Source: Candidatus Hodarchaeota archaeon
GTDB taxonomy: Archaea; Asgardarchaeota; Lokiarchaeia; Sigyniarchaeales; SOKP01
Assembly (NCBI GenBank): GCA_048886685.1
Contig: JBHLKM010000002.1
Location: 231,532 to 295,531, forward strand
Length of the DNA stretch: 64,000 nucleotides
Direction: 5' to 3'
Positions 7,681 to 17,949 of this stretch are shown here, piece after piece (position 1 is the first letter of the stretch; every line of letters begins with the position of its first letter). Under the pieces are notes generated by a model. It was not told the DNA's origin. It ran no database searches and saw nothing but the letters and a program-made list of their open reading frames with translations. A program made the position numbers and the translations under genes.

Positions 7681-9624
7681 ATGAATAATAAAGAAAATCA
7701 TCGGATTGGATACTATGCTTGTCAATGAGGTGTAAATATAAGAACTAAGGTAGATTGCGATGAATTAACTAATTATGTTAAGAGTCTTGGAGATGAAATT
7801 ATAATTTCGAAGAAAAACCCATTTCTATGAACTGATAATGCTCAAAATGAAATTATAGAGGACATCAAAGAAAAGAATTTAAATAGAATTGTAGCGTCCG
7901 CTTGAACTCCGCGTACACATGAGGTGATTTATAGAGGTACTATTGCTAAAACGGATTTAAATCCTTATTATTTTCAAATGGTAAATGTTCGGGAACATTG
8001 TTCTTGGTGTACAGATACTAAAGAAGAAGCTACAGAAAAGGCAAAAGTTTTAGTAAAAAGTGGCATTGAAAGAGCCAAGCGATTGGAACCTGTTCCTATT
8101 AAAACTGTTCCCGTCACTAAAGCCACTTTAGTTGTTGGAGGTGGGATAGGAGGTATGAATGCAGCTCTAGATTTAGCGAACCAAGGTATTAAAGTTTACT
8201 TAGTCGATATTAAAACAACAATCGGAGGAAGAATGGCTCAATTGGACAGAACCTTTCCAACAGACGACTGTGCGATATGAATCTGCGGTCCAAAAATGCT
8301 TGAAGTTAATAGAAATGAGAATATAGAATTATTAACATATTCTGAAGTAAAAAAAATTGAAGGATACGTTGGTAATTATAAGGTAACTATTGAGAAGAAA
8401 CCACGATACACAACTGATGAATGTAATGGTTGTGGTGCTTGCGCTGAAGTCTGTCCAGTTTATACAACGAATTATTTTGATGAGCATCTAGGTGCACGAA
8501 GAGCAATAGATATTCCATTTGGTCAGGCAGTCCCGTTTCTATATGATATTGATCGAAATGCATGTGTTGAGTGTTTTTCATGTGTAGACGCTTGTGAATT
8601 GGATGCTATTGATTTTAGCCAGGAACCTACAGAACTTAATGTTGAGGTTGGTACAATCATTATAGCGACTGGTTGGGATATACATGAACCTTTTGGCGAA
8701 TACGGATATGGAGAATTCGAAAATGTGATTACTCAAGCTCAACTAGAACGAATTTTAGCTCCAAACGGACCACTTGAAGGCCACGTACATCGAATTTCGG
8801 ATAATAAGAAACCTAAGGAAATTGTTTTCATTCAATGTGTCGGTAGTAGAGAAGAGGATAGGACTTACTGCAGCGGAGTGTGTTGCATGCTTGCTTTAAA
8901 GAATGGACGATTGCTTTTAGAAGAATTTCCTGATGCAAACATTACAATCTGTTATATTGACATAAGAACTCCTGAAAAAGGATTTGAAGAATACTATGAA
9001 CGAGCTAAAGATGCTGGTATTAGATTGATACGAGGGAAAGTAGGTGAAATTTCTGAAGATCCAGAAACAAAGAACGTGAAAGTTCGAGTATATTCAACAT
9101 TAACAGATAAAATTGTAAAAATTGATGCTGATTTAGTTGTGTTATCCACAGCAGCAATCCCTTCAAAAGGTACTCAACAGATTGTAGAACTTTTAAATCT
9201 TGATACTAATACTTATGGCTTTCTAACAGAATCACATTTCGGATTAATGCCCCAAGAAACTAAGTCAAAAGGCATTTTTATAGCTGGATTTGCTCAAGGA
9301 CCGAAAAATATTTCTTATTCCGTTTCTCAAGCTAGAGCCGCTGCTAGTAAAGTAGCGGAATTAACATCACCTGGAGAAATAGATATTGAACTAATTACTG
9401 CTGAAGTTGATAGCGATTTTTGTATCTCCTGTCGACGATGCGAAAAAGAATGCCCTAAAAATGCCATCAAGATTGAAGAAGACATCGGAGCGTTCATTGA
9501 TGAGATAAATTGCGATGGATGCGGTATCTGTGCTACATGCTGTCCTACTCAGGCAATTGATATAAGGTATTATCGAGATCATCAATTATTTGCAGAAATT
9601 GATGGAATTTTAGGAGGTGGTTAA
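7681..9624 (+). CDS. hdrA: Selenocysteine-containing heterodisulfide reductase subunit A (647 aa, 4 Sec)
   Basis: One frame from ATG 7681 to TAA 9624 with in-frame TGA at 7726 (ACQ*GVNI), 7828 (FL*TD), 7903 (SA*TPRTHE) and 8278 (DDCAI*ICGPKM). These match CHCGINI, YSCSS, ASCTPRTHE and DCSLCILAPKM in the paralogs. The call joins ORF-track fragments 7924-8280 and 8296-9624. Confidence 0.93.
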
Positions 9625-9627
9625 ACA

Positions 9628-10101
9628 ATGGACAACTATAATTATAAAATTGTTGCTTTTGCTTGTTTAAAATGAGGTTATAGCGCAGCGGATTTAGCAG
9701 GTGTTTCACGAATGAAATACCCTTCTTCCATAAAAATAATTAAAGTTCGTTGTACAGGAAGAGTAGATTTGAAACATATACTTTATAGCATTAAATCTGG
9801 GGCGGATGGTGTAATGCTTGCTGGTTGAAGACCCAGTGAATGCCAGTATAAAAACGGTAATTTCACGGCTAATAAACATGTCGAATTCGCAAATAGAATT
9901 TTAGAATCTAGAGGCTTCGGAAATCAAAGAATTAACATGTATTGGTTAAGTGGAGCAGAGTCAGAAAAATTTGTAAGAAGTGTAGAAGATGCTTTAGAAA
10001 AGGTAAAATCTGTTGGACCAAGCCCAATTAATTTAGTAAAACAAGAAGCAGAAATAGAAGCTAAAGAAACAAAACAAGCTATAACTACCCCTGCAGAATG
10101 A
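9628..10101 (+). CDS. mvhD: Selenocysteine-containing hydrogenase delta subunit MvhD/VhuD (157 aa, 2 Sec)
   Basis: MDNYNYKIVAFACLK*GYSAADLAGVSRMKYP...VRCTGRVD...GADGVMLAG*RPSECQY. TGA 9673 and 9826 align to the Cys of CNWC and GCH in the paralogs. GGAGGTG RBS upstream. Entirely missing from the ORF track. Confidence 0.93.
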
Positions 10102-10146
10102 ATCTTATAAAAAACTTTAGTTATAGGATGACTTACCTTGCGAGGG
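10088..10146 (+). ncRNA. Eukaryote-type SECIS element (cis-acting mRNA structure)
   Basis: AUGA (10098-10101), 9-bp stem AUCUUAUAA/UUAUAGGAU, loop AAAACUUUAG, then GA (10130-10131); lower stem CCCUGCAG/UUGCG-A-GGG. Confidence 0.85.
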
Positions 10147-10217
10147 AAGGGGTCTTAAAATAGTATTCAATTAAAATAAAAAATTTGTTAAATGGAAAAA
10201 TCCAAAAGGATGAGAAT

Positions 10218-11714
10218 ATGGTTCAAATTTCAAATAATGTATCTTTCAATGGAATATCCCCAAAAAATCTAATGGATGCAACATATAAAGCCATTAAAAA
10301 TTTTCAAATTCGAGCGTTCTTCGAAGCTAAAGATGAAATTTTAGAAATAGGTAAATATTCTGAAGAAGAATTTTATAAAATATTAGATGCCATGATAGAT
10401 GCTGAAACAGAGCGTAAATTAGTACTGGAGTCTTTAAGGGGTAAGGAACCGTTATTTTTAGAGGAAATTGCAAAAATTCTAAAAGACTTTCCGGCAGAAC
10501 ATGTAATTCGTGATATAATTTACCTAAAAGAACAGGGATATATTGAAGAACATATTGAAATAAAAACTAAAATAGTTATCAAGAAAATAAAGGGAGAAGA
10601 AAAAGAAGTCGAGGAACAAGAATATTTCTACAGATATCAAGTAAAAGATATACCCGAGGATTTCATTGAACATTTTTTTGAACCTGTCTCTATTGTCTTC
10701 GATTCTGAAGTATGCTGTCAATGTGGTTGGTGTTCATCTATTTGTCCTGTAAATGCCATTACAGTCACAGCAGATACTTTAGAGATCGATGATGAGACTT
10801 GTATGAAATGTGGGATCTGTTATTCTGTTTGCCCGAGATCATTTTCAATTGAACAAGCGGGTAAAAGCATAAATAAGCTTGATAAATCTTTAAAATTCTC
10901 AGAAAAAATTAATGGTTATATTAATACCTATTCTGCCTCCACCACTAAAAATGAAATTAAAAAAGTTCGACAAGATGGGGGAATTGTTACTTCTTTACTT
11001 GAATACTTACTCAAGAATAAATTAGTTGATGCAATTATAGCTGTAAAACATTCAAAGGACCTATGGAAACCAGAGCCAGTAATAGTAGAAGATGTTAAAG
11101 ATTTATACAAAACAAGTGGTACTAAATACGCTAATGCCTCAACTTTAAATATCATTGATGAAACGAAAAAGTACGAAAACATAGCAGTCGTAGGAGTTCC
11201 TTGTATGATGAATGCATTAAAAAAAGGGTATTTATTTCCAAGCGGACAACCTTTTTTCAAAAACATTAGCTATAGAATAGGGCTTTTCTGCATGGAATCT
11301 TTTCCCTATGAAGGAGTGCTTAAATTAATTAAAGATCAATTTGATAAAGATTTTAATAAAGTTACTAAAATGGATATAAGTGGGGGTAAATTTATTATAT
11401 ATTTAGATTCGGGTGAGGATTTAAGAGTACCCTTAAACGATGTTAAATCCTATGCACGCCATAATTGTCATTTTTGTGAGGATTTGACTGCCGATTATGC
11501 TGATATTTCTGTAGGATCGATTGGGTCTCCTAGTGGTTGGTCTACAGTAATTACGCGAAATGAAAAAGGTGATAAAATCTATAAAGACGCAATTAAAGCA
11601 GGATTAATTGAATCTAAAAGCTTAAAGGAGGTAAAACCAGGACAACCCTTATTAGAAAGGATTGCTGGTACAAAAAGAAAAAATTGTAAACCCATTAAAT
11701 TGGGACAAGAATAA
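10218..11714 (+). CDS. FrhB-family F420-binding subunit with N-terminal winged-HTH-like domain and 2x[4Fe-4S]
   Basis: CCQCGWCSSICP, CMKCGICYSVCP, QDGGIVT, SGTKY, VGVPC, IGLFCMESF, CHFCEDLTADYADISVGSIGS. ATG 10218 is preferred to TTG 10185. Confidence 0.85.
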   Translation: MVQISNNVSFNGISPKNLMDATYKAIKNFQIRAFFEAKDEILEIGKYSEEEFYKILDAMIDAETERKLVLESLRGKEPLFLEEIAKILKDFPAEHVIRDIIYLKEQGYIEEHIEIKTKIVIKKIKGEEKEVEEQEYFYRYQVKDIPEDFIEHFFEPVSIVFDSEVCCQCGWCSSICPVNAITVTADTLEIDDETCMKCGICYSVCPRSFSIEQAGKSINKLDKSLKFSEKINGYINTYSASTTKNEIKKVRQDGGIVTSLLEYLLKNKLVDAIIAVKHSKDLWKPEPVIVEDVKDLYKTSGTKYANASTLNIIDETKKYENIAVVGVPCMMNALKKGYLFPSGQPFFKNISYRIGLFCMESFPYEGVLKLIKDQFDKDFNKVTKMDISGGKFIIYLDSGEDLRVPLNDVKSYARHNCHFCEDLTADYADISVGSIGSPSGWSTVITRNEKGDKIYKDAIKAGLIESKSLKEVKPGQPLLERIAGTKRKNCKPIKLGQE

Positions 11715-17100: not shown

Positions 17101-17171
17101 ATGCGATAACTGTACATCATTTTACAGACGACCAAATCTTATCAGAAATTATTGTATACGGAGGAGATTAA
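14121..17171 (+). CDS. hdrA: Large (two-module) HdrA-like FAD/Fe-S protein
   Basis: VIGGGIAG, GGRMAQLDKTFPT, YCSSVCC, RIGVLICHCG, second IIGGGISG, C-terminal ferredoxin. Confidence 0.88.
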   Translation: MEGSVLVIGGGIAGIQASLDLTEMGFKVYLVEKTPSIGGRMAQLDKTFPTLDCSLCILAPKMVEVFRNPNIELMTYHEVKEVTGKAGDFKVTVLKRPRFVDETKCKGCGDCTTRCPKIEAPNIFDMNLGKRKSIYIPFPQAVPPVYLIDPDMCLKLTRDVCGVCEKVCEAKAIDFTQKTQEIQISVGAIVVATGFDMARDGLSSRWGIDYDNVVTALEYERILCASGPFGGHVLRPSDKEEPEKIAFIQCAGSRDLHERIPYCSSVCCMYTSKEAIITKEHSDQSQCFVFRHDIRAYGKNFYEFTQRAQNEYGVNYFHTKISKIKEDPENNDLIIHYEDLQSGLLNNFRANLVVLATPLVPSKGTEELAKILDIELDDYNFFKEKSHFTKSRSSKKGIFLAGFCQGPMDIPETVADASGVASQVAVLLSSVKFTETKEKIIEVPEKEVKITDDPRIGVLICHCGINIGKYIDIPKVIEYIKNLPNVVFCEDNLYSCSSDSQERIKEVINEFNLNRFVVASCTPRTHESLFQETCQEAGLNKYLFQMANIRDQCSWVHMEQPEEATQKAKDLIEMAVAKSRLFKPQEEQTLSMTPKALIIGGGISGMTAALNIANQGFNVYLIEKENRLGGLLNDLYLLYPTQEDSSTFLKRIIEDTTKNKNIQICLESKVKDVKGYIGNYDISIVNSKKEITEFKVGVIIVATGGKELKPIGYPQYNDKNQNVITQLELERKLKAEDLSWLDKIKRITTILCVRAREVKGITYCSNVCCAISIKNLNILKELKPDLEIIVLYRDFQMAKKEFEEYFFDRRKDAILLRYNLNKPPDIKKIGNKPEKYGIKVFDTNLQDDINFETDMIILSPPMSPPENSEELAKMLKVPLDHQGFFLEAHAKLRPVDFATDGVFLCGCAHWPKHIQESITQANGAAGRASRFLSSEDIIASGLVSEVDDELCIGCGVCVKLCPYNAISKNEQEVAVVNKLMCKGCGVCGASCPENAITVHHFTDDQILSEIIVYGGD

Positions 17172-17175
17172 TTAT

Positions 17176-17949
17176 ATGAATTTCACCCCAAAAATTTTAG
17201 GATTTTTATGTAATTGGTGCTCTTATGCTGGAGCAGATCTTGCTGGGGTAAGTCGAATTCAATACTCTCCTAATATTAGGATAGTAAGGGTTATGTGCAG
17301 TGGAAGAGTTGATCCTATATTTATTGCTGAAGCACTCTCAAGAAATATTGATGGAGTACTTGTTTTAGGATGTCATCCTGGAGACTGCCATTATATCAGC
17401 GGTAATTATGAAGCAGAGATAAAAATGAAGATGCTAACTAAATTATTGAAAATAATTGGGTTTTCTGAACGTTTAAGGTTGGATTGGGTTTCTGCTGCTG
17501 AAGGAAATAGATTTGCTCAACTAGTAAATGAATTTACTGAGCATATTAAAAATTTGGGTCCAAATCTGGTTAGAGACAAAAAATTAAAAAATAAATTAAT
17601 ATCCGATTTTGATGCTATAAAATCTGTATTGAAAGATTCAAGACTTAGAATTCTAGTTGGTAGAGAAAGAAAAATCATTAATGAAGGTAATGCATATAAC
17701 GAGAAAATCCCATTAGAGAAATTTGAACAAATTCTTGACGATGCCATTCAGAATGAATTTGAACGTCATAAAATATTACAAATAATTTCTGAAAATGGTA
17801 AATCCGTACCAGAAATCTCTAAAGAAGTTCAACTTCCCCCAAATAATGTGCTAAATCATATTGTTTCCTTAAGACAAAGAGGGTTGGTCGATTTACACGA
17901 GCTGAATGAAGAAATACCCCTATTTATATCAATTAACGAGGGCAAATAA
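17176..17949 (+). CDS. mvhD: MvhD (Cys form) fused to a C-terminal winged-HTH-like domain
   Basis: FLCNWCSYAGADLAG, VMCSGRVD, GCHPGDCHY plus about 120 extra residues; ATG 17176 follows GGAGGAG. Confidence 0.85.
   Translation: MNFTPKILGFLCNWCSYAGADLAGVSRIQYSPNIRIVRVMCSGRVDPIFIAEALSRNIDGVLVLGCHPGDCHYISGNYEAEIKMKMLTKLLKIIGFSERLRLDWVSAAEGNRFAQLVNEFTEHIKNLGPNLVRDKKLKNKLISDFDAIKSVLKDSRLRILVGRERKIINEGNAYNEKIPLEKFEQILDDAIQNEFERHKILQIISENGKSVPEISKEVQLPPNNVLNHIVSLRQRGLVDLHELNEEIPLFISINEGK

Follow-up and report, generated by a model that had tools for sequence, protein, structure and literature searches.

The closest described counterpart of the locus analysed here is the HdrA-VhuD tandem of Lokiarchaeota (Mariotti et al. 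2016, PMC4989117). In that study, VhuD is a protein of ~150 amino acids with two selenocysteine (Sec) residues 50 codons apart, and its partner HdrA contains several Sec residues, at up to five positions of which ~200 is always one. HdrA is always found upstream of VhuD on the same strand, separated from it by a very short gap, and its stop codon is always UAA or UAG. A single lokiSECIS located after VhuD serves up to six UGA codons distributed over ~2 kb. This element comprises AUGA, a stem of 9 bp, an apical loop that is rich in A and 11 nt long, and GA; the UGA stop codon can overlap the AUGA core. A 2024 survey of Asgard archaea (PMC11227280) covers 1439 selenoprotein sequences, of which HdrA and FrhD/MvhD/VhuD are the most numerous; UGA stops are described there as often overlapping AUGA.

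Structural information on this type of protein comes from the M. maripaludis complex and from the crystal structure of M. thermolithotrophicus MvhAGD-HdrABC. In both, the D subunit is attached to HdrA and has a single [2Fe-2S] cluster, through which electrons that arrive from hydrogenase or formate dehydrogenase are passed on to the bifurcating FAD (PMC13518236, PMC6019823, PMC5861303). For M. maripaludis VhuD itself, binding to HdrA and electron transfer from the [2Fe-2S] cluster to the HdrA flavin are described (PMC13518236). As far as these structural papers were covered, they do not settle what Sec does in such modules and say nothing on the Sec residues of VhuD.

Here we describe an HdrA-VhuD tandem in a Promethearchaeota (Asgard/Loki) metagenome-assembled genome, within an analysed stretch of 64,000 nucleotides (the window; C2:231532-295531). 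We are highly confident in the overall reading of a Sec-type MvhD/VhuD gene, followed by one SECIS that would recode six UGA codons, whose product would serve as an adaptor on HdrA. The locus shares with the Lokiarchaeota tandem its general architecture, two Sec codons in vhuD, a multi-Sec hdrA upstream and one SECIS, and the two hosts belong to the same group at phylum level.

Results

An MvhD-type reading frame with two internal UGA codons

Direct reading downstream of hdrA yields a vhuD frame without any in-frame TAA or TAG and without frameshifts (Table 1). The standard six-frame ORF list (minimum 80 aa) has no entry at this location. When the internal TGA codons are read through, the product matches the Pfam FlpD family (PF02662) over the entire profile (positions 1-123 of 123) with 148.8 bits (E 9.6e-44), compared to a curated cut-off of 22.3 bits. 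The preliminary description had proposed a 157-codon MvhD gene that is missing from the ORF track and starts 3 nt past the hdrA stop behind GGAGGTG, and each of these points is borne out by the sequence and the full-length family match.

Table 1. Positions of the features of the hdrA-vhuD locus within the window
Feature	Position	Strand	Remarks
hdrA, predicted selenoprotein gene	7681..9624	+	647 codons; TGA codons 16, 50, 75 and 200
In-frame TGA codons of hdrA	7726-7728, 7828-7830, 7903-7905, 8278-8280	+	
hdrA stop codon	9622-9624	+	TAA
Shine-Dalgarno-like GGAGGTG	9613..9619	+	inside the hdrA end, 8 nt 5' of the vhuD ATG
vhuD/mvhD (FlpD family), predicted selenoprotein gene	9628..10101	+	157 codons plus TGA stop
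vhuD start codon	9628-9630	+	ATG; gap to hdrA stop 3 nt
UGA codon 16 of vhuD (predicted Sec)	9673..9675	+	CxxU motif; context CLK-U-GY
UGA codon 67 of vhuD (predicted Sec)	9826..9828	+	context AG-U-RPSEC
vhuD stop codon	10099-10101	+	TGA
Putative Loki-type (eukaryote-like) SECIS overlapping the vhuD end	10087..10153	+	motif, position, covariation
SECIS helix I	10087-10091 with 10149-10153	+	ACCCC paired with GGGGU
SECIS AUGA core	10098-10101	+	includes the vhuD stop codon
SECIS helix II	10102-10110 with 10121-10129	+	9 bp, one G-U
SECIS apical loop	10111-10120	+	10 nt
3' GA of the SECIS core	10130-10131	+	
FrhB/FdhB-like flavoprotein gene	10185..11714	+	Pfam: two 4Fe-4S motifs, FrhB N and C domains

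The read-through product is 36-37% identical to three Cys-type MvhD paralogues of the window (17152, 21020, 33963). In this alignment the second Cys of CNWCS is matched by U16 and the first Cys of GCHxGDC by U67, as had been claimed beforehand for the CLK*G and AG*RPSEC segments. Among 150 FlpD family representatives, the five columns occupied here by C13, U16, C42, U67 and C72 contain Cys in 138-147 cases. The family pattern CxxC ... C ... CxxxxC is present in vhuD with U at two of its columns.

A decaying MvhD paralogue carrying two nonsense mutations would also account for a frame of which the standard gene call yields only fragments, and several intact Cys paralogues are indeed present nearby. 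Against such decay, both stops are TGA and both lie exactly on invariant Cys columns; the chance that two random stops both fall on the five invariant Cys columns is 10/12246 (~8e-4).

Conservation of vhuD and its UGA codons

To follow the gene across relatives we performed a six-frame search over 40 related genomes. Orthologues of vhuD are found in 19 genomes of the same genus, with 67-80% identity and exactly two TGA codons inside each. We then extracted and aligned 21 orthologous vhuD genes for codon and dN/dS analysis. TGA is present at both columns (16 and 67) in all 21, and the median pairwise values are 0.14 for dN, 1.15 for dS and 0.12 for dN/dS. The protein and both TGA codons are held while synonymous sites are nearly saturated. 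The preliminary description had named random disablements and a dN/dS near 1 in orthologues as grounds for refuting its reading, and neither is seen among the 21 orthologues. Since both TGA codons are kept in every orthologue and dN/dS is 0.12 at a dS of ~1.15, vhuD is not a pseudogene; recent copies of one dead locus are likewise excluded by the dS of ~1. Together with the lack of other stops or frameshifts, the conserved SECIS after the gene and the Sec machinery in the genome (see below), this makes decay of a paralogue extremely improbable.

A Cys-containing orthologue of this Sec-type vhuD subfamily was not found in the related genomes or among 1.8 billion cluster representatives. The best match among the latter is P0002, which represents the same gene (67% identity), and subsequent matches reach at most 44%. 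P0002, a public cluster representative of 156 aa, shows W at all three TGA codons, including the stop within the SECIS core, and ends in ...TPTEWFL. These W residues are an artefact of a gene caller that applied code 4 to an Asgard contig.

Taken together, the codon positions and their conservation support the prediction that vhuD is a genuine selenoprotein gene with two UGA codons read as Sec.

Selenocysteine machinery and genetic code of the host

The host genome comprises 4.4 Mb in 47 contigs with ~31% G+C. It contains a tRNA-Sec (63 bits, compared to a cut-off of 47 bits), which ARAGORN classifies as tRNA-SeC with anticodon TCA. A SepSecS gene lies directly beside it (E 5e-116), a SelB/EFSec-like gene that scores 237 bits, just below the bacterial SelB cut-off of 242, is located at a distance of ~4 kb, and a KTI12/PSTK-like kinase gene is present in the genome. 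SelA was not found in the genome search. Judged from this gene content, the Sec pathway of the host is of the archaeal/eukaryotic type.

SepSecS, tRNA-Sec and the EFSec/SelB-like gene lie within ~7 kb (G000:C1:219573-226340) and form a small Sec-machinery cluster. Elsewhere in the genome there are two tandem selD genes with one in-frame TGA each (G000:C13:56676-58803), in agreement with PMC11227280, where Loki and Thor genomes are reported to contain multiple copies of Sec-selD. Two more Sec-type FlpD genes belong to a different subfamily, with the motifs CWKUGYG ... AUY.GEC (G000:C6:147642 and G000:C11:123537). The former is followed by an AUGA/9-bp/A-loop/GA element; a simple pattern search detected none after the latter.

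A low G+C content of this order and the W residues at all three TGA positions of the public orthologue prediction P0002 would both be compatible with TGA being read as Trp or Gly throughout, i.e. with genetic code 4 or 25. The use of TGA in this genome contradicts such a code: among stop-to-stop frames, it terminates 247 of 1839 genome-wide (13%; minimum length 300 codons) and 4 of 32 within the window (minimum length 200 codons). TGA is therefore still an ordinary terminator, and a global reassignment is excluded. In addition, every in-frame TGA codon of hdrA and vhuD coincides with a conserved Cys and none with a Trp or Gly column, and a dedicated tRNA-Sec is present. We regard the probability of a changed code as practically negligible.

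A SECIS overlapping the vhuD stop codon

At the end of vhuD we identify a candidate SECIS of the Loki type, whose AUGA core includes the gene's own UGA stop codon (Table 1). Helix II follows directly and is capped by the apical loop AAAACUUUAG, with the 3' GA of the core on the other side of the stem. The 5' strand of helix I lies within the codons for ..T-T-P.. and, paired with its 3' partner, closes an asymmetric internal loop. Compared to the lokiSECIS of PMC4989117, the apical loop has 10 instead of 11 nt and helix I enters the coding sequence, both being genus-level details.

The proposed pairing is supported by the orthologues. Standard pairs are found in 96.9% of the pair cells over the 21 sequences, compared to 42-62% when the 3' partners are slid. 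Compensatory double changes occur at four pairs, three in helix II and one in helix I (C-G to U-A). None of the shuffles reaches the covariation score, and 1 in 500 reaches the count of pairs changed on both sides. As the sequences are close relatives, we consider the covariation supportive rather than strong. A search of the window with Rfam at gathering thresholds gives no match, and hence none to SECIS. The single-sequence fold of 10099-10200 regains the 9-bp stem with an energy no better than that of shuffled sequences (z -0.12). With the folding energy unremarkable, we base the SECIS assignment on its motif, its position and the covariation seen in closely related sequences.

A different hairpin further downstream (GACU..GGUC), which uses the GA of the core and is the one favoured by minimum free energy, was considered and rejected, as its inner stem is broken in the orthologue L021. 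Helix I is preferred because L021 shows the compensatory C-G to U-A change in ACCCC/GGGGU.

L021 (G010:C47) is unusual in other respects. Its vhuD ends on a TAA ~20 nt before the SECIS, so that the element is detached from the reading frame, and its core reads AUGA_AA and not AUGA_GA.

The 3' side of the internal loop, at 10132-10153 (columns 52-73 of alignment A2), has the consensus CUAACCUUGCAAGGGAAGGGGU and is almost invariant in the 21 genomes, in contrast to the nearly saturated synonymous sites in vhuD. The published SECIS description, as far as it was covered, does not account for it. The CUAACCUUGCAAGGGAAGGGGU region may form a 3-bp mini-hairpin or a putative protein-binding site.

The overlap of SECIS and coding sequence raises the question whether the UGA at the end of vhuD is also in part decoded as Sec, giving a three-Sec product ...PAE-U-I-L that ends on the TAA at 10108-10110. 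This UGA is in frame with a TAA two codons later, and the vhuD orthologues have a conserved C-terminal ...TTP(A/V)E-UGA-(F/I/L)-L-stop, the U-[FIL]-L-stop tail being present in 20 of 21. This tail is conserved, though, because the SECIS core and helix II overlap the gene end, and L021, with its earlier TAA and detached SECIS, indicates that the tail is not needed as protein. Moreover, the UGA is located inside the very element that must be folded for recoding, and PMC4989117 argues for a minimal distance between UGA and SECIS. We thus consider a third Sec improbable and retain the two-Sec product that terminates at this UGA.

The hdrA partner and the gene neighbourhood

The gene upstream of vhuD encodes an HdrA with Pfam FAD/NAD and 4Fe-4S domains. 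Its best PDB match is 9sfi_A from the M. maripaludis Hdr-Vhu-Fwd assembly (E 2.5e-202). X197 of 9sfi_A is aligned with U200 of HdrA, and the other three U are aligned with Cys. The four orthologous hdrA loci with long flanks have the same four TGA codons and stops that are TAA or TAG in all cases. In one hdrA orthologue, L038 (JBHLNW010000102.1), the C-terminal ferredoxin domain contains one more in-frame TGA, the fifth, near codon 613.

The 3-nt gap between hdrA and vhuD is conserved in all orthologous loci. The FrhB-like gene is located directly downstream of vhuD, with 79-88% identity, in all 24 orthologous loci that extend beyond vhuD, and the order hdrA-vhuD-frhB is kept throughout these. 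The downstream set comprises two FrhB/FdhB-like flavoproteins, an HdrB/C-like CCG protein, two HdrA-like proteins of ~1000 residues and two Cys-type MvhD. One Cys-type MvhD of the window (17152-17949, 265 aa) carries a C-terminal ArsR-like winged HTH, which is the domain order described for bacterial BamF in a bioRxiv preprint (10.64898/2026.04.10.717634).

No vhuAGU genes for a [NiFeSe] hydrogenase are found near vhuD, the nearest PF00374 match being ~84 kb away on the same contig (C2:325075). Given FrhB-like and not vhuAGU neighbours, we prefer the more cautious name 'MvhD-type adaptor' to 'hydrogenase subunit', and 'VhuD' is used here as a family name that is no proof of a hydrogenase subunit. 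At G000:C2:323851-326268 an HdrA-like protein with a C-terminal Cys-type MvhD fusion (730 residues upstream in frame) directly precedes a [NiFe] large-subunit gene. This fused HdrA-MvhD likely represents another Hdr module, one that is linked to hydrogenase and distinct from the Sec locus.

Similarity to the VhuD-HdrA complex of M. maripaludis

The best solved homologue of the VhuD described here is M. maripaludis VhuD (9sfi_K; E 5.3e-39, ~45% identical over 128 residues). It has X at the same two positions, in C-Y-Q-X-G-Y and A-G-X-K-P-N-E-C, and these X residues are read as Sec. Both proteins thus share CxxXGY and AGX(K/R)PxEC, a Sec-containing HdrA beside them and, as expected by analogy for the protein described here, the role of a [2Fe-2S] adaptor on HdrA. 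The comparison with a known VhuD, which the preliminary description had suggested as a check, agrees with its assignment; the status of VhuD as an archaeal selenoprotein family is in line with PMC4989117 and PMC11227280. Its proposal that VhuD partners the Sec-HdrA is likewise supported as the expected role, by the adjacent four-Sec hdrA and by homology to the M. maripaludis VhuD-HdrA pair.

The context differs in several respects. M. maripaludis VhuD has a methanogen-type SECIS and connects HdrABC, which reduces CoM-S-S-CoB, with a [NiFeSe] hydrogenase or Fdh. In the present case, by contrast, the organism is a non-methanogen, the neighbours are FrhB-like, HdrB/C-like and long HdrA-like proteins, HdrA has four predicted Sec and not one, and the SECIS is eukaryote-like.

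Discussion

Our analysis suggests the following mechanism. A single mRNA probably serves for the translation of both hdrA and vhuD, and on it the six internal UGA codons, four in hdrA and two in vhuD, would be decoded as Sec by the tRNA-Sec together with the EFSec-like factor. In line with the published Lokiarchaeota model, one SECIS of the kink-turn type at the vhuD end would direct all six. A ribosome arriving at the terminator UGA of vhuD would have to unfold the SECIS, so that this UGA would terminate translation. The resulting VhuD would be a small adaptor with a Rossmann-like structure and a [2Fe-2S] cluster. It would dock on HdrA and, by homology with the M. maripaludis and M. thermolithotrophicus complexes, may hand single electrons to the bifurcating FAD of HdrA. 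The input module would most likely consist of the FrhB-like flavoproteins encoded next to vhuD, and not of a [NiFeSe] hydrogenase.

In this protein the two Sec would take the place of two of the five invariant cysteines of the cluster region. The literature searched, in which the key structural papers are covered in part, does not state the identity of the four ligands of the MvhD [2Fe-2S] cluster. A useful comparison is provided by BamF of the class II benzoyl-CoA reductase from Geobacter metallireducens, which is likewise an adaptor with MvhD fold and [2Fe-2S] cluster on an HdrA-like bifurcating subunit and contains Sec19. BamF differs from the VhuD described here in being bacterial and more than 100 aa longer due to an extra wHTH, and Sec19 is the only Sec mentioned in the accessible text. 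In that text (10.64898/2026.04.10.717634) a cysteine near the MvhD cluster, Sec19 in BamF, is described as being near the cluster rather than a ligand. From residue number and motif, with BamF itself unaligned, we infer that Sec19 corresponds to the CxxU position, i.e. to U16 of VhuD. Position 16 is also the only one of the five Cys columns at which Ser (2) or Arg (1) is found as replacement, in 3 of 144 cases among the 150 family representatives. U67 is plausibly an Fe ligand, and U16 may lie next to the [2Fe-2S] cluster as a redox-active selenol instead of serving as a ligand. A more specific version of this idea, which we put forward tentatively and consider rather unlikely, is that U16 binds no iron and transiently enters a selenenylsulfide bond, in the manner of ferredoxin:thioredoxin reductase, which would make HdrA-VhuD a selenium-based converter.

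Every feature of the locus is already covered by PMC4989117 and PMC11227280, and it is therefore of a published kind and introduces no new principle. Its significance for annotation is practical, as gene callers miss vhuD or use the wrong code, which leaves public data with too few annotations for Asgard selenoproteomes and for bifurcating complexes of the Hdr type. The locus also adds another instance of the Loki HdrA-VhuD pair, which has served as an argument for deriving the eukaryotic SECIS from that of an archaeal VhuD. Finally, it touches on the question of what selenium does beside the [2Fe-2S] cluster of MvhD: if the tentative proposal for U16 is true, this residue and the four Sec of HdrA would constitute a selenium-based converter between one- and two-electron transfer that feeds the bifurcating flavin.
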